Positions 11,951 through 27,805 are shown, counted from the first letter of the stretch. The stretch: 30,262 bases of DNA from Candidatus Heimdallarchaeota archaeon (GCA_030614005.1 JAUWKS010000039.1:1-30262); one strand, 5' to 3'. Numbers and translations: made by a program. The notes: a model not told the origin generated them from the sequence alone.

Positions 11951-12075
11951 TTTTCTATCATTTTTCCTTTCGTTACAATATTCAATAGCTAAGAAACAAT
12001 TATATGAAGTAAACACAAAAGTTTTTATCTACAAGTTCTTGAATTTCAAGAGACTTCGAACAGGTGTTTATTGAG

Positions 12076-14178
12076 ATGAGTTTATTACCTGACAGACTAA
12101 AAACGGTTAAAGTTGCTGTTCCAATAGAGTATTCGCGTAACTTGTACAGGTTTCTATCCTTAGAAGAAAATCTAGACATCATAGATATTCAGAAGAAACC
12201 TTTTGAAATAAATTCTTTTGAACATGGTTCTAAAATCAAAGAACTTTCTGAAACTTTTAGTAAGGTTGTAGAGAATTTTGAGATTGCTGATAAAATCTCT
12301 GCGAAAAAGCATATTTCAATCGATGATCGTGATTTTAGTGCTGTGTTAAAAGAAATAGATAGAATTTCCAAAGATGTTATCGTTAAATTAAGTCAAATTG
12401 CTGATCGAATAAAACTTGCGGAACAAGAACTTGAAAAGAACAAATCTGCCATCGAAATTGCTCAGAATTTAATTCCTTTTGGATTCAGTTTTGAAGATCT
12501 TGATGATGAGCACCCATATTTTGATATTATTGTTGGACATATTCTCTCTAAAAGAATTCCAAGATTCAAATGGAATTTGGATGCAATTACTGATGGAAAC
12601 TATGTATTTAAAGAATCGCCATCTGAAGGAAAGCATTCATTTATCGCCATTGGATTCCTTGAACGATACCAAGAAGATATAAACCGGTTACTTGTAGCAT
12701 ATGGCTTTGAAAAATCATCTGTTCCAGAAAGAATTACTGGAAGCCCTGATAAAGTAGTAAAAAGAAGTTCCGATAAAATTGCTGCTCTTGAGAAGAAAAT
12801 TGCTGAATTGAAGGAAGACTCTGATATACTCATTTCAGAATATGGTGGCGAAATTATCGGCTACTCTGAACAATTGCAGATAGAGATGAATTATCTTAAA
12901 ATTGCTAATAAGGTTCGCGAAACTCAAAAGAAAGTTTCATTCTGGGCTTGGGTTCCTGTCAAAAAGATTTCAAGTGTTGAAAAGGGAATTAAGACAGCAA
13001 CTGAAGACAAAGCACAAGTTGAGTTCACTGAACCCGTATTCGAGGAATCTGAATTTCCAACAAAAACCTCTGTTCCTAAATTTGCTCGGGTTTATGATGG
13101 ATTAGTAAATGCTTATGGAACACCTGGTTATAATGAATATAATTCTGCAATTTTACTCCAAATCTTCTTCCCAATAATGTTTGGAGTTATGTTTGCAGAT
13201 GTAGGTCATGGCTTACTTTTCGCTCTATTAGGTGTTTACGGATTAACACTACAAAAGAAAGAATTAAGAAAAGATAGTTTCATGGATGAAATTAAGGGCT
13301 ATTTCAAAGGTGGAGCAATGCTGATGATTGTTTCAGGAATAGTTGCGATGATTTTTGGAGTATTGTTCGGGTCCTATTTTGGAGTTACACATCATGCAGC
13401 TGAATTTGTACCAAAACCACTCTGGTTTAGTCCAGAAGGTCATGAATTATTTAATGGTGCAAGTCCTGTTATTATAATTTTAGAATTCTCTTTAGTCATT
13501 GGTATGATTCATATGACTATTGGATATATTTTGCGTTTCATCAATAATATAAGACAAAAACAATATTTAGACGCATTCGGTATTCCACTAATGTGGACAA
13601 TATTCCATTGGAGTTTATTCATTTTAATCTTTACTTTTGGTACAAACTTTATGACTTGGTTTGATCCAAGCAATTCAGGCTATTTTGATCTTGCATTATT
13701 TTCAGTAGGAGGAGAACCAATTCAATTCTTCTACATTCCAAATGCTTTGTTGTTCTTCGCTCTAACACTTGGTTTGCCAATTTTAGTGATGACTGTTTCC
13801 TTGATTATTCATGGAAAACGACATGGATCCATTTTAGACGGTGTTGCAGAGCTTATCGAATTATTACTTTCAACATTATCAAACACGGTTAGCTATGCTC
13901 GGATATTTGCAATGAACGCTGTACACGGGGCACTCTCTCATATCTTTACCCTTAAAGACTTTACAGGAGGGGAAAGCATGGGCGTAATTAATTACATTGG
14001 AGTTGCTATTGGTGCTCTAGTAATATTAGCTCTTGAAGGATTGTTTTCATTCATTCAAACCTTGCGTTTACAATGGGTTGAATTCTTTTCAAAAGTAGGT
14101 TACAAAGGAACTGGAACCCCATTCCAATCCATGGCTATTCCACGAAAGTATTCCAAATTTACTAAAGTCAATACATAA
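12076..14178 (+). CDS. atpI: A/V-type ATP synthase subunit I (Vo a homologue)
   Basis: FFPIMFGVMFADVGHG, GMIHMTIG, LSNTVSYARIFA (essential Arg), LEGLFSFIQTLRLQWVEFFSK. ATG 12076 follows an AGGTG SD; the track GTG 12064 lies inside that SD. Confidence 0.95.
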   Translation: MSLLPDRLKTVKVAVPIEYSRNLYRFLSLEENLDIIDIQKKPFEINSFEHGSKIKELSETFSKVVENFEIADKISAKKHISIDDRDFSAVLKEIDRISKDVIVKLSQIADRIKLAEQELEKNKSAIEIAQNLIPFGFSFEDLDDEHPYFDIIVGHILSKRIPRFKWNLDAITDGNYVFKESPSEGKHSFIAIGFLERYQEDINRLLVAYGFEKSSVPERITGSPDKVVKRSSDKIAALEKKIAELKEDSDILISEYGGEIIGYSEQLQIEMNYLKIANKVRETQKKVSFWAWVPVKKISSVEKGIKTATEDKAQVEFTEPVFEESEFPTKTSVPKFARVYDGLVNAYGTPGYNEYNSAILLQIFFPIMFGVMFADVGHGLLFALLGVYGLTLQKKELRKDSFMDEIKGYFKGGAMLMIVSGIVAMIFGVLFGSYFGVTHHAAEFVPKPLWFSPEGHELFNGASPVIIILEFSLVIGMIHMTIGYILRFINNIRQKQYLDAFGIPLMWTIFHWSLFILIFTFGTNFMTWFDPSNSGYFDLALFSVGGEPIQFFYIPNALLFFALTLGLPILVMTVSLIIHGKRHGSILDGVAELIELLLSTLSNTVSYARIFAMNAVHGALSHIFTLKDFTGGESMGVINYIGVAIGALVILALEGLFSFIQTLRLQWVEFFSKVGYKGTGTPFQSMAIPRKYSKFTKVNT

Positions 14179-14179
14179 A

Positions 14180-14216
14180 CAATCTGCTCATTGCAGATTG
14201 CTCATCATTTTTTTTA
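14180..14216 (+). terminator. Hairpin plus T-tract after atpI
   Basis: caatctgc-tcatt-gcagattg 8-bp stem, then a T run; the gene converges with the zinc-finger gene. Confidence 0.55.
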
Positions 14217-14326
14217 TAATTTCTTCTGTAAAGCACATAATCTATTTTTCGAAAGTGAATTAATAAAAAAATTAGTACAGCGGAGATATTTTCCGCTTCT
14301 TGCATACGAATAAATATGTAAAGCTA

Positions 14327-14623
14327 TTAAAAAGTAAATTCAAACTCTTCTTCTTTTGGTTCTGGTTTGATTCTTCTAGATGCGTCAGCGATTATCTCTG
14401 GATGGAAATTTTTGATATGTAAACGCCAATTTTTTACCCAAAGACCACAATAGCAACACATATACTTTTCTTCTTTTGCTTCTTTCTTTGCGATATATTC
14501 TAAATATTTTGGATGTCTCCTTTTCATATGTTCCTCAGGATCCTCTATGATACTTTGGCATATTTTGCAAATTTTGATACCATCTTTTCTTCTCACAATA
14601 AAGTTATTTAAATTTTTGACCAC
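14327..14623 (-). CDS. Small protein with two C2H2-type zinc fingers
   Basis: CKIC-x9-H-x4-HP and CCYC-x9-H-x4-HP; GTG start preceded by GGGGGG, which can pair with the anti-SD through a G.U. Confidence 0.7.
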   Translation of the reverse strand: MVKNLNNFIVRRKDGIKICKICQSIIEDPEEHMKRRHPKYLEYIAKKEAKEEKYMCCYCGLWVKNWRLHIKNFHPEIIADASRRIKPEPKEEEFEFTF

Positions 14624-15108: not shown

Positions 15109-15570
15109 ATGCCACAATATGGATACTCGATTTTCGGACTTGACCCGGATCGTACTGCCATTGCTAGTGCACGAGAACTAGACATTAGCCCTAAGGCTGC
15201 TAGAGAGATTTGCAATACCATTAAGGGTATGTTTCTTGACAAGGCAAAGGAATATCTTGAAGATGTCATTGATATGAAAAAAGCTGTCCCTTACAAACGC
15301 CACAAAAAACATGTTGCTCATCGAAAGGAATTAAGCAAATGGCCTTCAGGTCGCTTTCCTGTCAAAGCAGCTAAAAAGATCTTAGAAGTTCTTGAAAATG
15401 CAGAAAATAATGCAGAATTCAAAGGTCTTGATGTTGAACGAATGAAGATCATTCATGCAAGCTCACATAAAGCGATGATTTTGAAACGCTATTTACCAAG
15501 AGCTCATGGTTCATCTTCCCCTAGATTTAATTATTTATCACATATTGAATTAGCCATTGAAGAGGTCTAA
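15109..15570 (+). CDS. rpl22: 50S ribosomal protein uL22
   Basis: ISPKAAREIC, KKAVPYKRH, GRFPVKAA, LENAENNA, PRAHG, SHIEL. Confidence 0.97.
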   Translation: MPQYGYSIFGLDPDRTAIASARELDISPKAAREICNTIKGMFLDKAKEYLEDVIDMKKAVPYKRHKKHVAHRKELSKWPSGRFPVKAAKKILEVLENAENNAEFKGLDVERMKIIHASSHKAMILKRYLPRAHGSSSPRFNYLSHIELAIEEV

Positions 15571-15572
15571 AA

Positions 15573-16670
15573 TTGTCAGCAATTACTCATTTCATTAAAA
15601 AGGGTGTTCGCCAATCACAGATTGACGAATATTTAGGTAGTGAGCTCGGACGTGCCGGATACGGCGGTGTCGAAATAGCAAAAACACCTTTGGGTGAGCG
15701 CATTACCATTCATGCTGCAAGACCAGGTATTGTTATCGGTCGAAGAGGAAAAAACATCAGAATGATTACTGATGAATTAGTTGCCCGATTTGGTCTTGAG
15801 AACCCTCAAATTGAAGTTAAAGAAGTTACAAACCCTGAACTTAATTCTAAAGTTATGGCTTATTCTCTTGTTTCAGCTATTGAACGTGGAGTTCATAGAA
15901 GAAGAGCAGCTTATTCTGTTCTTAGAAGAGTAGTTAATGCTGGAGCAAAAGGATGCGAAATTCTCATTTCTGGTAAACTTACTAGTAAAAGATCACGCCA
16001 TGAAGCTTATAGAATGGGTCTTGTTGCTAAAAGTGGTGAACTTGGTTCTACTTTTGTTATGCACGCAAATGCAACCGCTGTAATGAAATTAGGAACTATT
16101 GGTGTTACTGTTAATATTATGAGAGGAGATGTTCAATTACCGGATGAAATCAGCATTTTAGCTGTAAAATTCGTAGATGGTAAAATCGTAGACGAAACCT
16201 CTCCTGAAGCTGTCGAAGTGTCACCTAAAGACGAAGCTCTAAAGAAGAAAGAAACCAAGGAAGCCGTTTCTCCTAAAAAGAAAGAAGCACCTTCTGCAAA
16301 GAAAGAAGACGCTCCAAAGAAGGTAGAGACGAAAGTAGCTGCCAAGAAGAAAACTGACCTTGATCGTGAAGTTGAAGAGCTTTCTGACTTAATTGAAAAG
16401 TCTCCTGGTGAAGAAGTTAAACCAAAGAAAACTGAGAAGAAACCCAAGGCAAAGACTACAAAGAAAGATGATGCTAAACCCAAGGCAAAGACTACAAAGA
16501 AAGACGGTGTTAAACCCAAGGCAAAGGCTACAAAGAAAGACGGTGCTAAGCCAAAAGCAAAAACTTCCAAGAAAGACGAAGCAAAGGCAAAGGACACAAA
16601 AGCAAAAGCAGCTAAAAAAGATGACAAGGATAAAAAACCCAAGTCAAAAAAGGAAGCCAAGAAAAAATAG
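15573..16670 (+). CDS. rps3: 30S ribosomal protein uS3 with a ~170-aa Lys-rich C-terminal tail
   Basis: RAGYGGVEIAKTPLG, RPGIVIGRRG KH motif, GCEILISGKL; TTG start after a GAGGT SD; core is about 196 aa. Confidence 0.97.
   Translation: MSAITHFIKKGVRQSQIDEYLGSELGRAGYGGVEIAKTPLGERITIHAARPGIVIGRRGKNIRMITDELVARFGLENPQIEVKEVTNPELNSKVMAYSLVSAIERGVHRRRAAYSVLRRVVNAGAKGCEILISGKLTSKRSRHEAYRMGLVAKSGELGSTFVMHANATAVMKLGTIGVTVNIMRGDVQLPDEISILAVKFVDGKIVDETSPEAVEVSPKDEALKKKETKEAVSPKKKEAPSAKKEDAPKKVETKVAAKKKTDLDREVEELSDLIEKSPGEEVKPKKTEKKPKAKTTKKDDAKPKAKTTKKDGVKPKAKATKKDGAKPKAKTSKKDEAKAKDTKAKAAKKDDKDKKPKSKKEAKKK
16440..16583 (+). repeat. Four 36-nt tandem coding repeats (KPKAKTTKKDDA-like) in the uS3 tail
   Basis: Units start at 16440, 16476, 16512 and 16548; the first is aaacccaaggcaaagactacaaagaaagatgatgct. 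Confidence 0.9.
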
Positions 16671-16684
16671 GAGATGAATGAAAA

Positions 16685-16903
16685 ATGGCAATTCTAAAAA
16701 TGCGTGAAATTCGTTATATGACCGCTGCACAAAGAAAAAACCAGCTAAAAAATCTCCACAAAGAGCTTGCTCTCTTGCGAGCAAGTAAAGCGACTGGTGG
16801 CTCATTAGAGAAACCAAGTAAAGTTAAAGAAGTTAAGAAAACAATCGCAAGGACCTTGACTGTTATGAAAGAGAATGGTGAGCTTGAGCCCACTAACAGC
16901 TAA
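16685..16903 (+). CDS. rpl29: 50S ribosomal protein uL29
   Basis: LKMREIR...LHKELALLR...KPSKVKEVKKTIARTLT; follows rps3. Confidence 0.95.
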   Translation: MAILKMREIRYMTAAQRKNQLKNLHKELALLRASKATGGSLEKPSKVKEVKKTIARTLTVMKENGELEPTNS

Positions 16904-17195
16904 AAATATCCACAGACACGAGTTGATTGGTTTGAATGTTGAAATAATAAAATCTACTGATAAGAATCTAATCGGAATGCAAGGTTGTATTGTCGATGAA
17001 ACAAAGCAAATGCTGGTTATAGATCTTATTAATTCAAAATCAAACACAACAGCATCTCGTCGACTCTCTATTGAAAAGAAAAACAATTCATTTCGATTCC
17101 AATTACCAAATAAAGAACTCGTGGATGTAGATGGAAGTTTACTAAACTCTCGAAGCGAAAATAGAATAAAAAATGTAATCCGTAAAAGGTGGTAA
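16875..17195 (+). CDS. rnp1: RNase P protein component 1 (Rpp29/Pop4)
   Basis: NIHRHELIGLNVEI, GCIVDETKQML, VDGSLLNSRSENRIK; canonical position between rpl29 and rps17; overlaps rpl29 by 29 nt. Confidence 0.93.
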   Translation: MVSLSPLTAKNIHRHELIGLNVEIIKSTDKNLIGMQGCIVDETKQMLVIDLINSKSNTTASRRLSIEKKNNSFRFQLPNKELVDVDGSLLNSRSENRIKNVIRKRW

Positions 17196-17199
17196 AAAA

Positions 17200-17544
17200 A
17201 TGTCCAGATATATTGGCGTTGATGTTCCAGAACCAGAAAATGTTTGTAATGATATAAACTGTCCTTTCCATGGCACTCTTCGTGTCAGAGGTAGGATCAT
17301 AAATGGAACTGTTACAAGTCATAAAATGCAAAAAGCATGTGTTGTTCGTAGAGACTTTCTCTTTTATATAAAGAAATTCAAACGATACGAACGCAGACAT
17401 GGTACTTACAGTTCTCATAATCCCCCATGTATCGATGCTCGAGAAGGAGACAAAGTAACCATAATGGAGTGTCGTCCTCTTAGCAAAACAGTTTCCTATG
17501 TTGTTATTGCAAAGGAAAAACCCGTGGAGGGCATAGAATCTTAG
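17200..17544 (+). CDS. rps17: 30S ribosomal protein uS17
   Basis: CNDINCPFHGTL, KRYERR, HNPPCI, ECRPLSKT. Confidence 0.97.
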   Translation: MSRYIGVDVPEPENVCNDINCPFHGTLRVRGRIINGTVTSHKMQKACVVRRDFLFYIKKFKRYERRHGTYSSHNPPCIDAREGDKVTIMECRPLSKTVSYVVIAKEKPVEGIES

Positions 17545-17567
17545 AAAACCGAGGAGAATAAAAGAAG

Positions 17568-17984
17568 ATGTCGAGAAGAAAAGTAACAGGTATATCTCTC
17601 CCAAAACTTAGCAAAGGTGTTACAGTAGGCACACGTTTAGTTTGTGCAGATAACACAGGCGCAAAAGTTATTCAGATTATTGCTGTGAAAGGATTCAAAG
17701 GTCGTCTTAATCGGTATCCTTCAGCATCTGTAGGAGACATGGTTATTGTCACAGTAAAGAAAGGTACCCCTCAAATGAGGCGACAAGTTCTCCCGGCAAT
17801 AGTTATTCGCCAGAGAAAATTGTACCGAAGACCAAACGGACTCTGGGTTCAGTTTGAGGATAATGCTGCAGTAATTGCCAGTCCTGAAGGTAGCCCAAGA
17901 GGAAGCGAAATTCGTGGGCCAGTAGCAAAAGAAGCTGCTGAGCGATGGCCAAGAGTTGCCCACGCTGCTAGTACTATTGTATAA
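17568..17984 (+). CDS. rpl14: 50S ribosomal protein uL14
   Basis: [39 protein letters not shown]. Confidence 0.98.
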
Positions 17985-18018
17985 AATAATACTATGGTAA
18001 ACTAAGGAGAAGAAAAAA

Positions 18019-18441
18019 ATGAAGAAAAACGCAAAACTAACTAAACAACCTTCCAAGCAAAGAAAAATGCTCTATCAAGCACCTTTGCATAAAAGAAGGA
18101 AGATGTTAACTGCTCCTCTCTCTCCAACACTTGCAGAAAAAGAAGGCGTGAAAAGCTTGGTTATCAGAAAGGGTGATACTGTACGAATTAGAAGAGGATC
18201 CTTCAGAGGTATTGAAGGTGAAGTGTCTAAAGTTGGCCTCAAAAATATGATGGTCACAATAGAAGGCGTCACATTCGAGAAATCTGATGGCTCAGCTCAA
18301 CATTTCCCAGTTCGTGCTTGTAATTGCGAAATCATAAATCTGAAAAATATGAAAGATAAACGCCGCAAAGCAATTGTTGATCGAAGACTTGTCACTTTAG
18401 ATGAAGGTGTAGCAAGTGAAAAAGAAGAGGAAACGAAATAA
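18019..18441 (+). CDS. rpl24: 50S ribosomal protein uL24
   Basis: QPSKQRKMLYQAPLH, IRKGDTVRIRRG KOW motif. Confidence 0.96.
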   Translation: MKKNAKLTKQPSKQRKMLYQAPLHKRRKMLTAPLSPTLAEKEGVKSLVIRKGDTVRIRRGSFRGIEGEVSKVGLKNMMVTIEGVTFEKSDGSAQHFPVRACNCEIINLKNMKDKRRKAIVDRRLVTLDEGVASEKEEETK

Positions 18442-18458
18442 AAGGAAAGTGAAAAAAA

Positions 18459-19214
18459 ATGACTAAATCAGGTGGCTCAAAGCATCAAAAGAGAATTGCA
18501 TCCCCACGTAACTGGACAATCCGCAGAAAGGCACACAAATTCGCTTTCCGTGCAGATCCAGGACCTCATAGTCGTAATTCATGTATACCATTAGGTATTC
18601 TGTTGCGAGATGTTCTTAACCTTGCAGAAACTGCTCGAGAATTAAAGATCATCGTAAATAAACGACTAGTAACAATTGATGGGAATGTAGTTACAAATCT
18701 AAAACATCCTGTCGGTCTTATGGATGTAGTTCAAATTGATGAATTAAACAAAGCATATCGTATTCTACCACATGAGTTACACGTAATGATGCCTTATGAA
18801 ATGAAGAAAACGGCTACAATTACTAAACTCTGTAAAATTTTGAATAAAACCACAATCAAAGGTGGCATTACTCAATTAAATCTCCATGATGGGAGAAATA
18901 TTCTCTTACCAAAGGAAGCAGGCATTGAACAAAAATATAATACAAAAGACTCAATCGAAGTAAAACTTCCTTCTCAAGAGATAGCTACTCACTTCCCATT
19001 CAAAGAGGGAATGTATGCGATTATTACAGCTGGTAAAAACGTCGGCAAACATGGATCACTCAAAGAAGTTCAATGGCGTTTTGGTCCCAGAGCTTCAACT
19101 GTGACTCTAGTATCCCCAGAAGATGGTACAGAGGTTCAAACCACACCCGAATATATCTTCATCATAGGTGAAAAATCACCTTGGTTTCAAGCAAAAGGAG
19201 TCGATAGCAAATGA
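18459..19214 (+). CDS. rps4e: 30S ribosomal protein eS4
   Basis: HQKRIASP, PGPH, PLGILLRD, PVGLMDV, QLNLHDGRNI, ITAGKNVG. Confidence 0.97.
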   Translation: MTKSGGSKHQKRIASPRNWTIRRKAHKFAFRADPGPHSRNSCIPLGILLRDVLNLAETARELKIIVNKRLVTIDGNVVTNLKHPVGLMDVVQIDELNKAYRILPHELHVMMPYEMKKTATITKLCKILNKTTIKGGITQLNLHDGRNILLPKEAGIEQKYNTKDSIEVKLPSQEIATHFPFKEGMYAIITAGKNVGKHGSLKEVQWRFGPRASTVTLVSPEDGTEVQTTPEYIFIIGEKSPWFQAKGVDSK

Positions 19215-19759
19215 CACTAACTAAAGAAGATTATTTGAAGGATTGGCAAGAAAATAAAATGCGCAAACCTAAAGTTGCTTCCTTAATCCTTCACTGCTGT
19301 GTAGGAGAATCTGGTGAAGCACTAGAAAGGGTAAAGAAAATTTTCGAATCCATTGCTGGAATGAAAACAGCCGAAACTCGTGCTAAACGTTCTTTCAGAG
19401 AATTCGGAATTCGCGAAGGTGAACCAATTGGTGCAATAGTTACAATACGTGACGAAGCAAGCATCAAGAAACTTGTTGAGCGACTTTTCTACCCTCGAGA
19501 CAACAAAATTTCCCCAAGAAACTTTGATCGAGAAGGCAATTTTGGCTTTGGAATTAAAGAACACATTGACATCCCAGGTACTAGGTATGACCCTAACCTT
19601 GGAGTAACTGGCTTGGATGTATTTCTAAAAATAGAACGTCCAGGTTTTCGGGTGAAACGAAGATTCCGCGCACCAACCAAGATTCCTATGAGACATAGGA
19701 TTTCTCGTGATGAAGCGATTGTTTTCGCTGAAACAGAATTAGGATTATCTGTAGAGTAG
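19211..19759 (+). CDS. rpl5: 50S ribosomal protein uL5
   Basis: [42 protein letters not shown]; ATGA-type overlap with rps4e. Confidence 0.97.
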
Positions 19760-19770
19760 GTGAAAAGCGA

Positions 19771-19953
19771 ATGGCAAAAGGATCAGGTTCAAAACCAAAA
19801 GTAGTCAAATTTGGCAAAGGCTCTCGAAAATGTACACGATGTGGAGCCCATGAAGGTTTGATTCGAAGGCATGGACTTAACCTATGCAGACGATGCTTCC
19901 GTGAGGTTGCAAAAACTGTTGGGTTCAAAAGATATGGAGGACACGGAGGATAA
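19771..19953 (+). CDS. rps14: 30S ribosomal protein uS14 (zinc-binding)
   Basis: RKCTRCG...LCRRCFRE. Confidence 0.96.
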
Positions 19954-19986
19954 TTCCTCTGTTAGATAAAGTAGGTGAATAATACT

Positions 19987-20379
19987 ATGCCATTATTAGA
20001 TACATTAGCAAACGCAATGAATAATATCTGGAATGCTGAAAAGCTAGGAAAACGTGAAGTTTACCTCAAACCTGCTTCAAAACTTATCTCTTCCGTAGTT
20101 AAAGTGATGATGGCTAAAGGTTACATCGGTGAGTTTGAATTCATTGATGATGACCGAGCAGGAATCTTCAAAGTACAATTACTTGGAAGAATAAACAAAT
20201 GTCAGGTTATTAAACCACGATTTCCTGTGAAGCACAAAGAATTCGAATCCTGGGAAGAAAAATTCCTTCCTGCAAGGGATATGGGAATTCTAATTGTCTC
20301 TACACCAAAGGGTGTGATGAGTCACGAAGATGCAAAAGCATTGGGTATAGGAGGAAGACTCCTAGCCTATATATACTGA
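19987..20379 (+). CDS. rps8: 30S ribosomal protein uS8
   Basis: [44 protein letters not shown] 19987 follows an AGGTGA SD (track start 19975). Confidence 0.97.
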
Positions 20380-20398
20380 TTAAGGATGCGATAATGAA

Positions 20399-20956
20399 AT
20401 GCCTAAAGCTGTCTTTGTAGAAAAAGCTGTAGAAGCACCGGAAGGAGTTACGCTAGAGCTTAAGGGCATGAAGGTAACTGTCACAGGTCCAAAAGGAATG
20501 TTAGACCGAAACTTTAACGGTGAACCTGTAGATATGTCCTTAGCAAAGAGCAAATTGACTTTGTCTGTAGCCTTTCCACGCAAAAGAGAATTAGCAATGT
20601 TGGGAACAATTCAAGCACATGTGAAAAACATGATCGTTGGTGTTACTCAAGGGTACACCTACAAGCTAACAATTGTCTATTCTCACTTTCCTATCACAGT
20701 AGATGTGAAACCAGAAGAAGTTGTTATCAAGAATCTTTACGGTCAAAGAAACCCAAGAAGAGCAAAAATCCTTGGTGACACGAAGGTTAAAGTTGACGGT
20801 GATGAGCTAATCATCACTGGAATAAATAAGGAGCATGTTGGCCAAACATCAGCTAACATCCAAGAAATCTGTAAACTAAGAGGAAAATTACACAAAGATC
20901 CTCGACGATTTATGGATGGTATTTGGTTGTCAGCACAATATGTTGGCATTGACTAG
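20399..20956 (+). CDS. rpl6: 50S ribosomal protein uL6
   Basis: VTGPKG, GVTQGY, YSHFPI, KEHVGQTSANI, KDPRRFMDGIW. Confidence 0.97.
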   Translation: MPKAVFVEKAVEAPEGVTLELKGMKVTVTGPKGMLDRNFNGEPVDMSLAKSKLTLSVAFPRKRELAMLGTIQAHVKNMIVGVTQGYTYKLTIVYSHFPITVDVKPEEVVIKNLYGQRNPRRAKILGDTKVKVDGDELIITGINKEHVGQTSANIQEICKLRGKLHKDPRRFMDGIWLSAQYVGID

Positions 20957-20968
20957 GAGTGAACCATC

Positions 20969-21796
20969 ATGACTGTTGATAAACGATTACTCCGTGAAAG
21001 AGCCAAAATAAGAAAGAAACGTCCTAAATTTAGACGACAAGAAAGTTGGCGATACAAACGATTACGAACCGGTTGGAGACGACCAGTAGGTATCGACAAT
21101 ACTATGAGACATCATAAACGAGGTTGGCCAAAAATAGTTAGGATCGGATTTAGAGGTCCTAAAGCCGTTAGAGGATTAACATCAACCGGAAAAGTTGAAG
21201 TTCTTGTTCATAATGTCAAGGAAATTGAACAAATTGACGTTGACGTTCAAGTAGCTCGTATTGCTTCCGCTGTTGGAATCAAAAAGAAAGTTGATATGAC
21301 CAACAGAGCTGATGAACTAAATATAAAGATCATCAATAGACCCGAAGAAGCATTAACATTTGCTACAATATCCGAAATCTCAGAAGAACTATTACTAGAA
21401 GACGACGAAGTTGATAAGAAGAAACCTTCTCGACCTCGTAAGAAGAAAACATCTTCAAGTGGATTAACTGCTAAAGAAATGGTTGAATTAGATCAGATTG
21501 AATCACAATTAGCAGGTAAAGCTAAGAAACCAACCACTAAAACCAAAGCTAAACCAGCTGCCAAGAAGACCACTACTAAGAAGCCTGCTACAAAACCAAA
21601 AACCACTACTAAGAAACCTACAACAAAGAAACCAACCGCAAAGAAAACCACCACTACCAAGAAAGCACCTGCAAAACCAAAAGCATCTACTACCACTAAG
21701 AAGAAGACCACTTCACCAGCGAAGAAGAAAGCAACCACTTCTAGTAAGAAGGCTGACGACACAAAGAAAAAAGCTGCCTCTAGCAAGAAAAATTAG
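20969..21796 (+). CDS. rpl32e: 50S ribosomal protein eL32 with a ~150-aa extension (acidic linker, then Lys/Thr/Ala/Pro-rich tail)
   Basis: KFRRQES, WRRPVGIDN, GFRGPKAVRGL, VLVHNVKE; core is about 125 aa. Confidence 0.96.
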   Translation: MTVDKRLLRERAKIRKKRPKFRRQESWRYKRLRTGWRRPVGIDNTMRHHKRGWPKIVRIGFRGPKAVRGLTSTGKVEVLVHNVKEIEQIDVDVQVARIASAVGIKKKVDMTNRADELNIKIINRPEEALTFATISEISEELLLEDDEVDKKKPSRPRKKKTSSSGLTAKEMVELDQIESQLAGKAKKPTTKTKAKPAAKKTTTKKPATKPKTTTKKPTTKKPTAKKTTTTKKAPAKPKASTTTKKKTTSPAKKKATTSSKKADDTKKKAASSKKN

Positions 21797-21814
21797 GAAT
21801 GAGGTGTAAAAAAC

Positions 21815-22348
21815 ATGACTGATTTGAAAACCCAAAGAAATATCGCTGCAGATATCCTCGGTATAGGAGTAAACAGAGTCTATATTGACCCTGATGCTGC
21901 AGATGAGGTTCAAATGGCACTAACTCGAAGAGATATTCGAGCTCTAATCCACAGCGGTGCTATTCAAGCCAGAAAAATTCAGGGTATTAGCAGAGGTAGA
22001 GCAAGAGCACTCCACATCAAACGTATCAGAGGTCAAAGACGAGGACACGGTAGTCGTAAAGGACGGAAAACCGCTCGTTCAGACACAAGACGAGATTGGA
22101 TTTATCGTATACGAAAGCAACGTACTTATCTAAAGGCTCTCAGAGATAAAAATTACCTCGATAAAGCAACTTATCGTATTTTATATCGACGAGCTAAAGG
22201 TGGTATGTTTCGTTCTGCTAATTACTTGAGAATGTACATTCAAGATAACAGAATGTCTAAAAGAAAATTACCTGAAGTAGATTCAGTAATGCGTGAACTC
22301 CGTTTAGCAAAATCGGAGTATCATAAGAATGAACAAAGGAGTACGTGA
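21815..22348 (+). CDS. rpl19e: 50S ribosomal protein eL19 with a ~30-aa C-terminal extension
   Basis: QRNIAADIL, RGHGSRKG, WIYRIRKQR, YRRAKGGMF. Confidence 0.97.
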   Translation: MTDLKTQRNIAADILGIGVNRVYIDPDAADEVQMALTRRDIRALIHSGAIQARKIQGISRGRARALHIKRIRGQRRGHGSRKGRKTARSDTRRDWIYRIRKQRTYLKALRDKNYLDKATYRILYRRAKGGMFRSANYLRMYIQDNRMSKRKLPEVDSVMRELRLAKSEYHKNEQRST

Positions 22349-23238
22349 AGAAAATGGCGAAAAGTGCAAGTTACCACGTTCCTTTCAGAAGAAGAAGAGA
22401 AGGTAAAACTAACTTTCGGAGAAGAAAACGTCTTCTCAGATCAGATAAACCAAGAATGATTGTAAGACGATCAAACAAACATGTCCGAGTTAGCATCGTT
22501 GGTGCTAAAGTTATCGGTGATGAGACTTTGGTCGATGCAACTTCTCAACATCTAAAAGAATATGGTTGGAAAGGAGCAACGGGCAATCTCCCTTCAGCAT
22601 ATTTAACCGGCTATTTAGCTGGAAAATATGCCCTAGCAGTTGGTGTGAAAGAAGCGATTCTTGATATCGGTATAAATTCAATTAGAAAAGCAACAAGAGT
22701 CTCAGCTATGTTAGCTGGTGCTATTGCAGCAGGTATTGACATCCCACATAATCCATCTGTCTTCCCAGAAGAAGATAGATATACAGGAAAACATATTGCT
22801 GATTTTGCTGCTAAATTGAAGAAAGATGGTGCAAAGAAATACGACCAACAATTTTCCGATTATAAGAAACGTTCAGCAAAACCAGAAAGCTTACCTACTT
22901 ATTTCAAAGCTACTATTAAAGCGATTGATGCAGAATTTGCTTCTGGATCAATGAAAGCTAAACTAAAGAATCGTACTAAAAAGAATAAACTCCCCACATC
23001 TCCAAAGAAAAAGCCTGCGAAAAAAGCAGCTGCAAAGAAACCAGTTACTAAACCAAAGACTACTACTACAGCAAAGAAACCTACTGCTAAACCAAAGACT
23101 ACTACAACAAAGAAACCAACCACAACAAAGAAAGCTACAAGTACGACCAAGAAAGCGAGCACAACAGCTAAGAAAAGCTCTTCTTCAGCAGGAAAAACAA
23201 CTGCTAAGAAAGGAACCACAACAAAATCTAAGAAGTGA
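22345..23238 (+). CDS. rpl18: 50S ribosomal protein uL18 with a ~100-aa Lys/Thr/Ala/Pro-rich tail (start GTG 22345 or ATG 22354)
   Basis: PFRRRREGKTN, NLPSAYLTGYLAG, AILDIG, RYTGKHI; core is about 198 aa. Confidence 0.96.
   Translation: MKKMAKSASYHVPFRRRREGKTNFRRRKRLLRSDKPRMIVRRSNKHVRVSIVGAKVIGDETLVDATSQHLKEYGWKGATGNLPSAYLTGYLAGKYALAVGVKEAILDIGINSIRKATRVSAMLAGAIAAGIDIPHNPSVFPEEDRYTGKHIADFAAKLKKDGAKKYDQQFSDYKKRSAKPESLPTYFKATIKAIDAEFASGSMKAKLKNRTKKNKLPTSPKKKPAKKAAAKKPVTKPKTTTTAKKPTAKPKTTTTKKPTTTKKATSTTKKASTTAKKSSSSAGKTTAKKGTTTKSKK
23032..23109 (+). repeat. Two 39-nt tandem coding repeats (AKKPxxKPKTTTT) in the uL18 tail
   Basis: Units at 23032 and 23071, followed by a degenerate partial third unit. 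Confidence 0.8.
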
Positions 23239-23244
23239 TAGAAA

Positions 23245-23865
23245 ATGTCAACATTAAATGAATGGAAACCAAAAACCAAACTTGGTAAATTGGTCAAAAA
23301 CGGAGAAATTGTTTCCATCCATGAAATCTTTCAACAATCTTTGAAGATTAGTGAAGAAGAAATCATTGATACTTTAGTCTCAAATCTTGAGGATGAAGTG
23401 ATAAACATAAATCTCGTTCAAAGACAAACCGATGCTGGTGAAAAATCAAGATTCAAAGCTTGTGTAGCTGTAGGAAACAAAAATGGTTTAGTTGGTATTG
23501 GTGAAGCCAAAACAAAGGAAATTGGTCCCGCAATTAGGAAAGCAATTATTGCTGCAAAACTAAACCTTGCTCCAGTTAGAAGAGGTTGTGGCTCTTGGGA
23601 ATGTTCCTGTAACGATCCACATAGTATTCCTTTCAAAGTAAGAGGCAAAACCGGTAATTGCGTTGTAGTTGCAAAGCCAGCTCCAAAAGGTTTAGGTCTT
23701 GCTTCTGGAAACGTAGGCAAGATAGTATTCGAGCTTGCTGGAATAACTGATATCTGGACCAAAACTAAAGGTGAAACAAGAACCACTGCTAATTATGCGA
23801 AAGCAACCTTTGATTGCTTAAAACGCACCTATAAAGTGATCACCCCAAGAGATTGGGGTAGATAA
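23245..23865 (+). CDS. rps5: 30S ribosomal protein uS5
   Basis: WKPKTKLGKLV, VQRQTDAGEKSRF, VRRGCGSWEC...HSIPF, PAPKGLGL. Confidence 0.98.
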   Translation: MSTLNEWKPKTKLGKLVKNGEIVSIHEIFQQSLKISEEEIIDTLVSNLEDEVININLVQRQTDAGEKSRFKACVAVGNKNGLVGIGEAKTKEIGPAIRKAIIAAKLNLAPVRRGCGSWECSCNDPHSIPFKVRGKTGNCVVVAKPAPKGLGLASGNVGKIVFELAGITDIWTKTKGETRTTANYAKATFDCLKRTYKVITPRDWGR

Positions 23866-23888
23866 TACATTAAGGACGTGTAAAAGAA

Positions 23889-24368
23889 ATGTCAAAATCA
23901 AAACAAGGGTTAATTGCTGTCATCAGAATAAGAGGACAAGTTGATCAACCTAAAGGTGTTAAACATGGCTTAAATCTACTAAGTCTAAATAGAGTAATGA
24001 ATGCAGTAGTCGTCCCTAATGACCCCACTCACGTAGGGATGATGCAACAGCTAAAAGATGCGGTCACTTGGGGCGAAATCGATAAGAAAACTTTAACGGC
24101 ACTAATTAAGAAGCGAGGAAGAATTGTTGGCAATAAGAAAATTGACATCAAATACCTCAAAGAACAAAAGTTCGATACAATGGCTGCTTTTGTCACAGCA
24201 ATTTATGACTGCAAAGCAGATATGCGACGAATAGATGGATTAAAACCACTCTTTCGATTACATCCACCAAGAAAGGGCTTTAAATCAGTTAAAAACCCAA
24301 TAACTCGTGGTGGCGATTTAGGCTACAGAGGAGACAAAATAAACGCTCTCCTTATGAGGATGTTGTAA
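23889..24368 (+). CDS. rpl30: 50S ribosomal protein uL30 (long archaeal form)
   Basis: IAVIRIRG, VTWGEID, FRLHPPRKGF, GDLGYRGDKINALL. Confidence 0.96.
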   Translation: MSKSKQGLIAVIRIRGQVDQPKGVKHGLNLLSLNRVMNAVVVPNDPTHVGMMQQLKDAVTWGEIDKKTLTALIKKRGRIVGNKKIDIKYLKEQKFDTMAAFVTAIYDCKADMRRIDGLKPLFRLHPPRKGFKSVKNPITRGGDLGYRGDKINALLMRML

Positions 24369-24386
24369 TTTCGTGAGGGAAAAATA

Positions 24387-24824
24387 ATGGTACAAAGATT
24401 TAGACGAAAAATCAGAAAACAACGTGGTAGTATGCACCATGGTTGGGGTATCCAAAAAGGACACAAAAAAGCCGGCAGTAGAGGCGGCGTTGGTAAATCA
24501 GGCGGAACAACCCATCAATGGATGCAATCTATAGTAACCGGTAAAGTCTATGGTAAACAAGGTTTCGTTAGACCACCAAGAGCTTCTCCTCACACTAAAG
24601 CAATGAATATCGGTGACATAACTGATAAAATAGATGCACTAATCGCAAAAGGCATTGCAACGAAAAAAGGAACAGAAATCATTGTTGATACCACTTTATT
24701 GGATGTAACAAAGGTTCTTAGTAAAGGACCAGCCAAGAAAATGACTATAATTGCTCAATCCTTCTCGGCTAACGCTAAAGCTAAAATCGAAAAAGCTGGC
24801 GGAAAAGCGAAAATCGCTTCATAA
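24387..24824 (+). CDS. rpl15: 50S ribosomal protein uL15
   Basis: RKQRGSMHHGWG, GSRGGVG, YGKQGF, FSANAKAKIEKAGG. Confidence 0.96.
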   Translation: MVQRFRRKIRKQRGSMHHGWGIQKGHKKAGSRGGVGKSGGTTHQWMQSIVTGKVYGKQGFVRPPRASPHTKAMNIGDITDKIDALIAKGIATKKGTEIIVDTTLLDVTKVLSKGPAKKMTIIAQSFSANAKAKIEKAGGKAKIAS

Positions 24825-24837
24825 ACAAATAACTTAT

Positions 24838-24882
24838 AATCTCCGGTATTTTCGGAGATTCAACTCTATTTTTTTTCTTTTA
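24838..24882 (+). terminator. Hairpin plus T-tract ending the ribosomal cluster
   Basis: aatctccg-gtatttt-cggagatt 8-bp stem, then caactctatttttttttctttt. Confidence 0.65.
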
Positions 24883-25048
24883 ATCTAATCAAAGTTTTGG
24901 TAATGATTTTTTTTCCACCAAAATATTAATTGACACTTAAAAATATCAAATTTAAGTAAGAATAAAATGACAGTAAAGCTAAAAAAGAAGTAATTTCTGA
25001 AAAGAAGAGGAAACAATCTTATTAAAATAACAACGTGCGTGATAAATC

Positions 25049-27805
25049 TTGTCCATAGATATTAACAAATTAAAAGATGAAATCAGAAAAAGCTCTAAAG
25101 ATAATCCAGAGAAATTTTACCCTGTAGACTCGTTACAAGAATTAGGATTCAGCAGAGGGATTTGCATTCATTGTGGTAAATCATTCTGGACAATCGGTGA
25201 AAGAGATTTTTGTGATGAACCTGAATGTCGTCTTAAAAGTGGTCTTATGCCATATGGTTTTATTAATGACCCACCATCAACTAAACGATATAATTATACT
25301 GAAACATGGAAGAATGCTTGGGTACCCATTTTTGAAAAACATGGGCATACAGTAATACCAAGGTATCCTATAGTCGCACGTTGGAGAGATGATGCTGAAT
25401 TTGTTCAAGCTTCTGTGTATGGTTTTCAACCCCATGTTGTAAGTGGTGAAGTTGATCCCCCTGCTAATCCAGTACTAATTCCTCAGCCTTGCCTGCGATT
25501 TAATGACATAGATAATGTTGGTTTATCCGGAAGGCATTTGACATCTTTTGTAATGGTAGGTGAGTTAGTCTTCAACAAACCAGGAAAATTCATCTATTTT
25601 ATGGATGATGGAATAAAATATATTCACGATTATTTAACCACAGGTCTTGGTATAAAACCACAAGAAATAGTTTATCATGAGGATGCTTGGGGTGGTGGTG
25701 GTAATCTTGGCAGTTCCATGGAATTCTTCGTACGAGGATTAGAAGTTGGCAATCAAGTTTATATGACCTATAAAATAGAACCGAATGGTAGTTATTCCAA
25801 ATTATCTACTACCGTAATTGATATGGGCGCAGGATTAGGTCGTTCTACTTGGCTCATAAATGGCACTCCAACTCAATATGAAGCTAATTTTGATACTGTT
25901 CTTCCAAAAGTACTCAAAAAAGTAGGCTTTAAACCCGATCAAACTTTATGGGAAAAATATGCTCGATTCAGTGGTGTTCTAAATTACCTCGAGACAGATG
26001 TTGCTAGCGTTTGGGTAGATGTTGCCAAATCATTGAATACTGATCCTAATATTTTGAAAGCTGAAATACAACCAATGAAAGCTGTATACTCTGTTATTGA
26101 TCACACTAGAACTCTTCTTTGGGCAATTTCTGATGGTGCACTGCCTTCAAATGTTGGTGGTGGATACAATCTACGTTTCTTACTCAGAAGAGCATGGTCA
26201 ATAGTAGCTGAAAATGACTGGAATCTCGATCTGTTTGATCTTATTGATTGGCATATGGATGATTTAAAAGATCTCTTCCCAGGTTACGCAAAACACGGTG
26301 AAACTGTTAAAGAAGTATTTGAAGTTGAATACAAGCGCTTTAAAACAAATAAAGCGAAAGGGATGAAAATTCTCAAGAAGAAATTGAAGTCTTCTAAATC
26401 AATTTCAGTTGATGAATTAGTAACTCTCTACGATTCTAATGGCATTGTTCCCGAAATGCTTGTAGAAGTCTCAAAAGAGCTAGGTTTAGAAGTAAGAATC
26501 CCTGATGATTTTTACAGCAGATTACATGCTATCCATGAAAAAACAAGTCGCGCAAAACCATTAGCCACACAAGGAGATTATAAAATACCTGAAGATTTAC
26601 CTGATACTATCATAGATTATGATGAGCTGAATTTTGAGGGAGAAGTTTTGTGGCAAAAGGATGATCTCATTGTCTTAAAGAAGACTGGATTTTACCCTAC
26701 TTCTGGTGGGCAATTACATGATCTTGGTTCAATTGACGGTATTGCTCTTAAAGAAGTAAGAAAAGTGGGTGCAGTAGTTGTTCATGTCCTGGAAAAACCA
26801 CGCCCAACAAAACGGAAGAAAGTTCGATGCTCCGTAGATGTTTATAGAAGAACTATCTTAATGCGACATCATACAGCAACCCATATTATTAATGCTGCAG
26901 CGAGAGAAGTTCTAGGCACTCATGTTTGGCAAGCAGGTGCAGAGAAAACCATGGAAAAGGGTCGATTGGATATTACTCATTTTGATTCCTTGACTCGAGA
27001 ACAGATGGCTGCAATTGAGAAACGATCAAATGAAATCGTTTACCTGAATATTCCAGTAACAATTGAAGTATTACCTCGAGATATTGCAGAGCAAAGATAT
27101 GGTTTTACCATTTATCAAGGTGGAGCCATTCCTGAGAAGAATCTACGAATAGTTGCAATCGATGACATTGATATCGAATGTTGTAGTGGAACTCATACAG
27201 AAAGGACAGGAGACGTAGGACCAATTGTTCTTTTAAGTTCAGAAAGAATACAAGATGGCATCGTTCGATTAGAATACGTTTCTGGAGAAACAGCTGTGAA
27301 TGCCATTCAAAGAAGAAATCAGATTGTACAAGAAACACTAGATATGTGGGGAATTGATCTCCCAGCTTTGCCTGCAACAGCACAACGATTCTTTAATGAA
27401 TGGAAAGCACAGAAAAAAGAGCTGCTTGAAATAAAGAAAGGTAAAGCCTTACTAGAATCTGAATTATTGGAAAAGAAAATGATTTCAGTTGGAAAAGTAA
27501 AAATCCTCGCTGAAAAGCTATCTGGGGATGCAGAATATCTCAGTCAATTAATCTTCACTTTAACAGCTAAGAACAAAGATCTCATAATATTACTAATAGA
27601 AGAAGAATCACTGTTCATGGCTATTGGCGCAGGAAAGAAAGCAGCAACCATTTTCTCAAGTAACGATCTTCTGAAAGAAACCTCTAAAGTCATGGGAGGC
27701 TCTGGTGGCGGGAAAGCCGATTTTGCTAGAGGAAGTGGAAAAGAACCCAAGAAAATACCCGAGGCAATAGCAAAATTCAAACTACTTGTAGAATCCAAAA
27801 AATAG
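25049..27805 (+). CDS. alaS: Alanine--tRNA ligase, archaeal type
   Basis: N-terminal CxxC...C motif, QPCLRFNDIDNVG, DMGAGLGR, DHTRT, editing motifs MRHHTATH and ECCSGTH, C-terminal GGSGGG; TTG start. Confidence 0.97.
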   Translation: MSIDINKLKDEIRKSSKDNPEKFYPVDSLQELGFSRGICIHCGKSFWTIGERDFCDEPECRLKSGLMPYGFINDPPSTKRYNYTETWKNAWVPIFEKHGHTVIPRYPIVARWRDDAEFVQASVYGFQPHVVSGEVDPPANPVLIPQPCLRFNDIDNVGLSGRHLTSFVMVGELVFNKPGKFIYFMDDGIKYIHDYLTTGLGIKPQEIVYHEDAWGGGGNLGSSMEFFVRGLEVGNQVYMTYKIEPNGSYSKLSTTVIDMGAGLGRSTWLINGTPTQYEANFDTVLPKVLKKVGFKPDQTLWEKYARFSGVLNYLETDVASVWVDVAKSLNTDPNILKAEIQPMKAVYSVIDHTRTLLWAISDGALPSNVGGGYNLRFLLRRAWSIVAENDWNLDLFDLIDWHMDDLKDLFPGYAKHGETVKEVFEVEYKRFKTNKAKGMKILKKKLKSSKSISVDELVTLYDSNGIVPEMLVEVSKELGLEVRIPDDFYSRLHAIHEKTSRAKPLATQGDYKIPEDLPDTIIDYDELNFEGEVLWQKDDLIVLKKTGFYPTSGGQLHDLGSIDGIALKEVRKVGAVVVHVLEKPRPTKRKKVRCSVDVYRRTILMRHHTATHIINAAAREVLGTHVWQAGAEKTMEKGRLDITHFDSLTREQMAAIEKRSNEIVYLNIPVTIEVLPRDIAEQRYGFTIYQGGAIPEKNLRIVAIDDIDIECCSGTHTERTGDVGPIVLLSSERIQDGIVRLEYVSGETAVNAIQRRNQIVQETLDMWGIDLPALPATAQRFFNEWKAQKKELLEIKKGKALLESELLEKKMISVGKVKILAEKLSGDAEYLSQLIFTLTAKNKDLIILLIEEESLFMAIGAGKKAATIFSSNDLLKETSKVMGGSGGGKADFARGSGKEPKKIPEAIAKFKLLVESKK

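Follow-up and report, generated by a model that had tools for sequence, protein, structure and literature searches.

The DNA analysed here is a stretch of 30,262 nucleotides from Candidatus Heimdallarchaeota archaeon (GCA_030614005.1, JAUWKS010000039.1:1-30262), hereafter called the window. It carries a ribosomal protein operon in which three proteins, uS3, eL32 and uL18, end in long lysine-rich tails. An earlier note, made from the sequence, had singled out these tails as a possible undescribed system. The operon and the three genes are:

15109-24824, plus strand: ribosomal protein operon of archaeal S10/spc type, uL22-uS3-uL29-Rpp29-uS17-uL14-uL24-eS4-uL5-uS14-uS8-uL6-eL32-eL19-uL18-uS5-uL30-uL15
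15573-16670, plus strand: uS3 gene, 365 amino acids (aa); Pfam KH_2 at residues 17-90 and Ribosomal_S3_C at residues 101-182
20969-21796, plus strand: eL32 gene, 275 aa; Pfam Ribosomal_L32e at residues 18-123
22345-23238, plus strand: uL18 gene, 297 aa; Pfam Ribosomal_L5e, the L5e/L18p match stopping at about residue 127

Three long-tailed ribosomal proteins in one operon

Pfam matches name eight of the operon proteins, and the remainder are named by sequence and conserved gene order. Both domains of uS3 score above the Pfam cut-off (PF07650, E 2e-17; PF00189, E 1.7e-19), and the gene stands in the order uL22-uS3-uL29. PF01655 is matched over its full length in eL32 (E 8.8e-34), the gene of which lies between uL6 and eL19. 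uL18 is matched by PF17144 (E 8.6e-26) and lies between eL19 and uS5. Its residues 4-198 align to solved archaeal uL18 chains of 197-205 aa (E 1e-53), and the fold ends at about residue 198. Thus, uS3, eL32 and uL18 are genuine ribosomal proteins with long C-terminal tails. These tails are about 175, 150 and 97 aa long, in line with the lengths given in the earlier note, and have net charges of +23, +28 and +34. Its remark that the neighbouring ribosomal proteins are near normal length also holds, the remaining 15 operon proteins having 60-251 aa and no comparable tails. No Pfam match falls within the tails of uS3, eL32 or uL18.

In the following, f1 is the family of the window, g1 its genus, G000 its genome and g2 the sister genus. 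Orthologues were taken from 40 relatives, among which f1 is represented by 10 congeners and, for uS3, by one sister genus. The parts of the tails are:

16143-16667, plus strand: uS3 C-terminal tail, residues 191-365, mixed-charge, K-rich, net +23
16344-16415, plus strand: invariant island KKKTDLDREVEELSDLIEKSPGEE of the uS3 tail, residues 258-281, from the alignment of f1 genomes
16440-16578, plus strand: 36-nucleotide (nt; 12-codon) tandem repeat in the uS3 tail, 3.9 copies, encoding KPKAKTTKKDGA, found with Tandem Repeats Finder
21338-21400, plus strand: eL32 tail island 1, acidic-hydrophobic RPEEALTFATISEISEELLLE, residues 124-144, near-invariant in f1
21434-21448, plus strand: conserved K-block PRKKK of eL32, residues 156-160, from the f1 alignment
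21464-21517, plus strand: eL32 tail island 2 LTAKEMVELDQIESQLAG, residues 166-183, conserved as L[TS]xxExxELxxIE
21518-21793, plus strand: distal polycationic K/T/A/P/S low-complexity tail of eL32, residues 184-275, predicted disordered
22945-23235, plus strand: uL18 C-terminal K/T/A/P/S tail, residues 201-297, net +34, with conserved terminal TKSKK

The uS3 tail (175 aa) contains 33% K and 21% D+E. Its island follows the pattern KKKTDLDxxVEELS[DE]LIEK in f1, in which VEELS[DE]LIEK is unchanged across 11/11 f1 genomes, and VEELS or LIEK is found in 51 of the 52 uS3 database clusters of the window's clade. The units of the tandem repeat are 82-95% identical (repeat families D2/D3), and the copy number varies among close relatives. 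The eL32 tail (residues 126-275; 28% K, 19% T, net +28) is acidic at its start and polycationic from about residue 184, and it keeps RPEEALTFATISEISEELL across f1. Its proximal 40-50 residues, including island 1, are the retained ancestral acidic tail; acidic tails occupy the position of island 1 in other families. AlphaFold2, run on an f1-rich alignment, predicts both islands to be helical (residues 126-143 and 168-181), the latter being the most confident part of the tail. Residues 184-275 mostly have a predicted local distance difference test (pLDDT) score below 50, with block means of 41-50. The uL18 tail (97 aa) contains 34% K, 26% T and no D or E, and across f1 it keeps MKxKLxxRNKKN in addition to the terminal TKSKK. 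The low pLDDT in eL32, the tandem repeats, an in-frame indel and a composition kept at 25-49% identity characterise the tails as disordered, low-complexity segments.

Distribution of the tails among Heimdallarchaeial families

The assembly of the window has 3.62 Mb, 33.5% GC and 90% completeness. One genus-level relative sits in assembly JABLTI01, and the GTDB order o__JABLTI01 corresponds to Gerdarchaeales (PMC11193907). From this accession, the window's genus most likely belongs to the order Gerdarchaeales of Heimdallarchaeia.

Every complete f1 orthologue of uS3, eL32 and uL18 bears a basic tail, of 147-230 aa in uS3 (net +4 to +29), 106-170 aa in eL32 (net +13 to +34) and 69-130 aa in uL18 (net +25 to +35). 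The other five Heimdallarchaeial families sampled are different. Their uS3 tails are acidic (69-177 aa, net -7 to -44), their eL32 tails have 39-64 aa with about 50% D/E (net -17 to -36), and a uL18 tail is absent, the proteins ending at a ...KIDxEF helix. Since uS3 of the sister families already has acidic tails of 69-177 aa, the change in uS3 is mainly one of charge and composition.

The eL32 and uS3 surveys covered a collection of 5.8 billion proteins. Clade eL32, taken as a domain identity of at least 72%, forms 63 clusters with long tails at a median net charge of +17. The other extended eL32 proteins among the matches listed are mainly acidic (median net -11), with a few very short ends of +2 to +3; the lone +12 exception among the C-extensions listed is probably from the sister genus. 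Clade uS3 forms 52 clusters with a median net charge of +24. A positive uS3 tail is found in 0/68 more distant uS3 proteins, all of which have a net charge of zero or below, down to -78 in haloarchaea, in line with the earlier remark that archaeal uS3 tails are often acidic. Together, the relatives and the database surveys identify the f1 tails as a lineage-specific charge inversion and expansion. They are a family-specific gain: on uS3 and eL32 the tails extend or supplant acidic ones, and on uL18 they are new.

A separate observation concerns one genus (g7) of family f2. Its uS3 tails (L043, L044, L047, L058 and L046) are acidic first, then run into K-rich KTEKVDKAS-like tandem repeats and end in KSKKK. 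They are a partial, independent parallel to the f1 tails.

Coding status and evolution of the tails

The tail frames are open much more than their A-rich composition would lead one to expect. Composition-preserving shuffles of the tail sequences stay open with frequencies of 5e-5 (uS3), 2e-4 (eL32) and 6e-3 (uL18), and the other sense frames over the tails contain 2-21 stops. Metagenome contigs from three independent studies cover parts of the tails. The public runs listed include no RNA data set with this sequence, which bears in neither direction on expression. Across 7.7 kb, the sole strain-level indel seen is a 3-nt ACT insertion at 21604, which lies in the eL32 tail and is in frame. Together with this in-frame indel, the conserved end motifs beyond variable stretches speak for translation of the tail over its full length and for selection on its composition and charge.

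The tails diverge fast. Compared with the more distant f1 congeners they are 25-49% identical vs 66-86% for the domains, and tail length varies widely among congeners, along with repeat number. Yet their composition and charge are preserved, as are the terminal motifs and a few short islands. K makes up a fraction of 0.22-0.39 throughout, so that in close relatives the tails are neither absent nor compositionally random, which the earlier note would have counted against its proposal.

The eL32 and uL18 tails have a common composition and periodicity; shared descent of the two is not shown. A recent gene conversion between them is rejected, as identity reaches 63-79% over 43-nt units and BLASTP gives no alignment. 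AT bias as a cause is rejected as well, since the Lys codons AAA and AAG are about equal and the Thr, Ala and Pro codons are not AT-rich.

Lysine-rich segments on other proteins of the genome

The trait is not confined to three proteins of one operon, as had been supposed. uS7, encoded on a separate contig of the window's genome (C123:9974-10957), has 327 aa and a 145-aa K/E/A/P-rich N-terminal extension with an internal duplication, KKEEKKAPKKEKAAA occurring twice. In nine g1 congeners with a complete gene this extension has 116-156 aa and a net charge of +6 to +33. The sister genus has an acidic 36-aa stub at this position, and other families have no extension. Methionine aminopeptidase (MetAP; C43:11597-12784) has a 100-aa K/T/S/A-rich N-terminal extension with net +32. 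Throughout the window's genus it has 95-128 aa (net +20 to +44) vs short acidic N-termini in families f2 and f3, and it matches HC2 at 24.6 bits, under the 40-bit cut-off. Thus, uS7 and MetAP gained comparable basic extensions in the window's genus. Eukaryotic MetAP2, which has a lysine-rich N-terminus, offers a parallel.

With a strict definition of K/T/A/P/S-rich windows, only 14 open reading frames (ORFs) are found genome-wide, and the two longest segments are those of eL32 and uL18. With a broader criterion (K-rich, hydrophobic-poor), uS3, uS7, eL32 and uL18 account for four of the five longest segments in the proteome. About 21 of the 32 Pfam-named carriers are translation, RNA or DNA proteins. 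Those of translation and RNA include aIF2-gamma (the extension of which is common to f1 and family f3), MetAP, MetRS, SRP19, RIO1 kinase, an Rpo7-like S1 protein and an exosome RNase PH subunit. DNA and chromatin carriers include Alba, Topo VI-B, an HhH protein, two RadA/Rad51 proteins, a DnaG-type Toprim protein, a GAN-like DHH protein and RFC-L.

Two further proteins were observed. A 149-aa protein (C85:9979-10428) has a 69-aa K/T/S-rich N-terminus with a weak sub-threshold HC2 match, followed by a C-terminal half without assignment, and is a candidate chromatin or RNA-binding protein. The S1-domain Rpo7-like protein (C122:10303-10917) has an 80-90-aa K-rich C-terminal tail, and its ORF seems to be without the usual N-terminal half of Rpo7.

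Basic appendages in Thorarchaeota and other archaea

For uL18, the domain was searched against 1.84 billion representatives and the best 150 were examined. Their median length is 194.5 aa, and about 8-10 of these best 150 end in basic K/A/P tails (27-150 aa) whose sequences are unrelated, one of these proteins being from Altiarchaeales. Among 300 Asgard genomes, the large family f11, with proteins labelled Thorarchaeota, has uL18 open frames of about 250-283 aa. Eleven f11 genomes have a uL18 tail of 51-63 aa with net +20 to +28 and the motif PPRAxPRKPKPKKL...GKGKKGK. Their eL32 is extended at the N-terminus. In 9/11 genomes it starts with one or two HhH_5-like domains followed by a K/P/A-rich linker, and in the other two with a K-rich extension without an HhH-like start. 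The extension has net +12 to +30 in 11/11, and the acidic C-tail is retained. HhH (helix-hairpin-helix) is a known nucleic-acid-binding fold, typically on duplex DNA. We found no description of the Thorarchaeota HhH-eL32 fusion or of the basic uL18 tail in the literature searched.

On one Thorarchaeota-type contig (L269), the eL32 and uL18 loci lie at 7707-8546 and 9001-9765, and uS3 there is acidic. The same contig has an HSP20 gene within the ribosomal protein operon, between uL30 and uL15 (10952-11494).

In another archaeal lineage, with 50% GC, the uL18 tail has 146 aa and the eL32 tail passes from acidic to basic. Family f14 has uL18 without a tail and acidic eL32 tails. It is also informative on base composition, because f14 (31-33% GC) has no basic tails in contrast to Thorarchaeota (42-54% GC), which have basic appendages. 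Low GC is therefore not the explanation.

With basic appendages in Thorarchaeota, Altiarchaeales and further lineages, the feature is not unique to the window's lineage. eL32 and uL18 are recurrent sites for basic, putatively nucleic-acid-binding appendages.

rRNA expansion segments

The large subunit (LSU) rRNA gene of the window's genome (C95:25794-29052) has 3259 nt. We measured expansion segment (ES) 39 between fixed anchors around H98, leaving out one f14 genome (G280) in which the anchors do not align. ES39 has 179-189 nt in four f1 genomes. It has 103-106 nt in f2, 120-121 nt in f4, 120-123 nt in Thorarchaeota (f11) and 125 nt in f14. Thus, f1 has the largest ES39 among the families measured. 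This value is consistent with what Penev et al. (PMC7594248) reported for the supersized Heimdall ES39, the long helix of which was predicted to point toward the central protuberance or else in the direction of the exit tunnel. eL32 lies beside H25/ES7L (PMC10516650) and within the ES7L-ES39L neighbourhood (PMC5961077). A link between the tails and ES39 in f1 is plausible, given its large ES39 and the position of eL32 near ES7L/ES39L.

The suggested link with rRNA expansion stands within f1 and fails as a general rule. Thorarchaeota have basic appendages although their ES39 is no larger than that of the acidic-tailed f4, which has no uL18 tail. Across families we reject the size of ES39 as a predictor of basic tails in general and keep it only as a lineage-specific alternative.

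Total LSU length gives a misleading picture of expansion, since the genomes differ in introns of 61-880 nt. Intron-like insertions of 69 nt at about position 2524 (reference numbering) occur in all four f1 genes, of 61 nt at about 2707 in G000 and G005, of 848-880 nt at about 1979 in G005 and G007, and of 182-389 nt at about 2496 in most other genomes. The LSU rRNA gene of G015 (C57:307-3242, 2936 nt) is without the insertions common to Heimdallarchaeial LSU genes and scores highest against the generic archaeal model. This contig is probably a contaminant in that metagenome-assembled genome.

Comparison with known systems

In tails of the H1 C-terminal type, Lys accounts for about 40% and is accompanied by Ala and Pro, acidic residues are nearly lacking, and S/TPxK motifs recur. 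The window tails, compared with this type and with HC2, have 28-34% K, Thr as the second residue in eL32 and uL18, and one S/TPxK per tail, the serine of which is not conserved. None of the Pfam matches of uS3, eL32 and uL18 is to the linker-histone family (GH1) or HC2. The likeness to H1 that the earlier note described appears to be one of composition only, the tails being T-rich rather than A-rich and uS3 about 21% acidic. The uL18 tail does not correspond to the eukaryotic C-terminal domain either. Ribosomal_L18_c is not found in uL18, the only Pfam matches being PF17144 and PF00861. The eukaryotic uL18 chains in the PDB align to about the first 100 residues (with the exception of 6zu5, query residues 8-195), and none reaches the tail.

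The closest precedent is the H1-like tails of insect RpS6, RpL23a and eL22. Such extensions are described for mosquito RpS6 and RpL23a and for Drosophila eL22/uL23 (PMC548281; references in PMC11764897). The insect tails are likewise long, terminal, lysine-rich and of low complexity, sit on otherwise normal ribosomal proteins, are lineage-specific and arose independently on several proteins (PMC548281). They differ in the proteins concerned (eS6, uL23 and eL22 vs uS3, uS7, eL32 and uL18 here) and in the domain of life. They are also A/K/P-rich and nearer to true H1, whereas eL32 and uL18 of f1 are T-rich and uS3 and uS7 polyampholytic. Unlike in insects, the f1 tails arose by charge inversion from acidic ancestral tails, and the change reaches ribosome-associated factors.

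The acidic tails of archaeal uS3 and eL32, in other Heimdallarchaeia, the Lokiarchaeia-like f14, Odinarchaeia, Bathyarchaeia and haloarchaea, are on the same proteins at the same position. They have net charges of -6 to -78 and are usually shorter, in contrast to the f1 tails with +13 to +38. Thorarchaeota, another Asgard class, have basic appendages on the same two LSU proteins. However, their uL18 tail has a conserved sequence and is short, at 51-63 aa, their eL32 appendage is N-terminal with a folded domain, uS3 is acidic in the one Thorarchaeota-type locus (L269), and ES39 is not enlarged. In eukaryotes, basic peripheral extensions such as the eL14 and uL13 tails, which co-evolved with ES7L/ES39L, also accompany ES39 expansion (PMC5961077, PMC7594248), but they have no sequence homology to those of f1. 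The C-terminal domain of eukaryotic uL18 and the lysine-rich N-terminus of MetAP2, an enzyme bound to the ribosome, are further eukaryotic extensions of this kind. Since the trait is derived within one Heimdallarchaeial family, it is a parallel to the eukaryotic state and not its ancestor. Heimdallarchaeal histone tails are K-rich, disordered and on a nucleic-acid-binding protein of the same phylum (PMC6136690, PMC11764897); unlike the tails described here, they are short, N-terminal and on histones rather than ribosomal proteins. No paper on the tails of the window, nor on disordered regions in Asgard ribosomal proteins, was found in the literature searched, in agreement with the earlier view that the system is undescribed.

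Proposed function of the tails

We infer, with a probability of about 0.5, that the tails are flexible polycationic arms which bind the nucleic-acid backbone non-specifically, most probably RNA at the ribosome surface. In f1, the solvent-exposed C-termini of uS3, eL32 and uL18 have acquired long, disordered, lysine-rich tails of net positive charge. In the proposed mechanism, these flexible arms would contact the phosphate backbone without sequence specificity. eL32 and uL18 may target the rRNA of the ribosome itself, with the enlarged ES39 included, and uS3 and uS7, located in the small-subunit head, may target mRNA at the channel entry and exit. This would strengthen affinity locally and improve retention. 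Docking of the tail bases onto the ribosome or a partner is probably the role of the conserved helical islands. The concentration of K-rich segments on nucleic-acid proteins supports such nucleic-acid arms, as do the HhH domain added to Thorarchaeota eL32, the convergent gains and the charge held despite sequence turnover.

Several points weigh against this proposal. The tails could be cleaved or never touch RNA. Those of uS3 and uS7 are polyampholytes with about 20% acidic residues and thus weaker polycations, and no expansion of the small subunit (SSU) rRNA matches them (1491-1522 nt vs 1452-1485 nt). Carriers of K-rich segments also include proteins without an obvious nucleic-acid role, such as TPR, HEAT, ESCRT-II and RDD proteins and GltD-like oxidoreductases, which argues that a lineage-wide propensity contributes. 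The enrichment figure itself depends on which ORFs Pfam names.

The alternative that survives best is that the tails are essentially neutral, produced by replication slippage of lysine-rich repeats and tolerated at solvent-exposed termini, which would amount to constructive neutral evolution. We consider it unlikely. Tandem repeats with 82-95% unit identity, the large length variation among congeners, a tail identity of only 25-49% and the K/T/S-rich segments on unrelated TPR proteins and oxidoreductases of the same genome speak for it, and slippage surely supplies the raw material. However, at least five proteins within a single lineage changed in the same direction, from an acidic or absent tail to a basic one, all genus members and 52-63 database clusters keep the composition and net charge, and end motifs are conserved past variable stretches. 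Furthermore, the carriers are enriched for nucleic-acid proteins, GC-richer Thorarchaeota made convergent gains on eL32 and uL18, including a folded HhH domain, and f14 at similarly low GC has no tails. The direction, conservation and enrichment are not easily explained by slippage.

Somewhat less likely still is that the LSU tails (eL32, uL18 and perhaps MetAP) co-evolved with the supersized ES39 and serve to neutralise or organise its extra helix. ES39 is longer in f1 (179-189 nt) than in the other families measured (103-125 nt), and the 60-85 nt that it has in excess are similar in magnitude to the net charge of about +62 on the eL32 and uL18 tails together. eL32 is placed in the ES7L/ES39L neighbourhood (PMC5961077, PMC10516650), and the helix is predicted to run toward the central protuberance, where uL18 sits, or the exit tunnel, the MetAP site (PMC7594248). 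But this is a single phylogenetic contrast, and Thorarchaeota have their appendages although their ES39 does not exceed that of the acidic-tailed f4. Nor can ES39 explain the tails of uS3 and uS7, which are on the small subunit, whose rRNA is not expanded.

The idea of the earlier note that H1-like arms tether ribosomes to genomic DNA in the nucleoid or drive ribosome condensates is improbable: the composition like that of the H1 C-terminal domain, the single SPKK in uS3 (residue 233) and in uL18 (residue 219), the similar segments on Alba, Topo VI-B, the small protein with the weak HC2 match, RadA and RFC of the same genome, the HhH domains of Thorarchaeota eL32, which are typically duplex-DNA binders, and the alternating acidic and K-rich blocks in the eL32 and uS3 tails fit it, but no linker-histone or HC2 match reaches the curated thresholds, the tails are T-rich and not A-rich, those of uS3 and uS7 are about 20% acidic, the serine of SPKK is not retained across the uS3 alignment, and these data do not distinguish a DNA from an RNA ligand.

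A broader proposal can be put forward, to which we give little credence at present. In it, the outer shell of the Gerdarchaeales-type ribosome would have been remodelled in a coordinated way, polycationic arms on both subunits (uS3, uS7, eL32 and uL18) and on docking factors (MetAP, aIF2-gamma and SRP19) co-evolving with the supersized ES39. If true, it would be a prokaryotic counterpart, independently evolved, of the layer that expansion segments and protein extensions form in eukaryotes, and it could serve in mRNA capture, factor recruitment, or ribosome clustering or tethering. Taken with the HhH-eL32 and basic uL18 of Thorarchaeota, Asgard archaea would then be repeatedly exploring ribosome peripheries of a eukaryote-like kind.

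The size and surface complexity of the ribosome rise sharply from prokaryotes to eukaryotes, and to our knowledge Asgard archaea are the only prokaryotes with supersized rRNA expansion segments. The present analysis shows that remodelling of the ribosome periphery in Asgard lineages extends to its proteins and has recurred at the same sites, eL32 and uL18. In f1 this takes the form of a clean, lineage-wide switch from acidic to basic that extends to MetAP. Sister families of opposite tail charge and a graded ES39 provide a natural comparative system, usable for the co-evolution of protein extensions and rRNA expansion and for the role of disordered polycationic ribosome tails. In addition, the tails and their compositional bias affect the ribosomal protein alignments that place Asgard archaea relative to eukaryotes.

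Neighbouring genes

The ribosomal protein cluster of the window begins at uL22, without the uL3-uL4-uL23-uL2-uS19 block upstream (12064-14623). uL22 directly follows a V-type ATPase subunit I gene and a small zinc-finger-like ORF on the minus strand. Downstream of uL15 lies alanyl-tRNA synthetase, not SecY (24824-27805). Near the end of the window, an ORF of 169 aa (29739-30248) has a C-terminal acidic EEPVEEVI-like tandem repeat, which reaches to within 14 nt of the window end.

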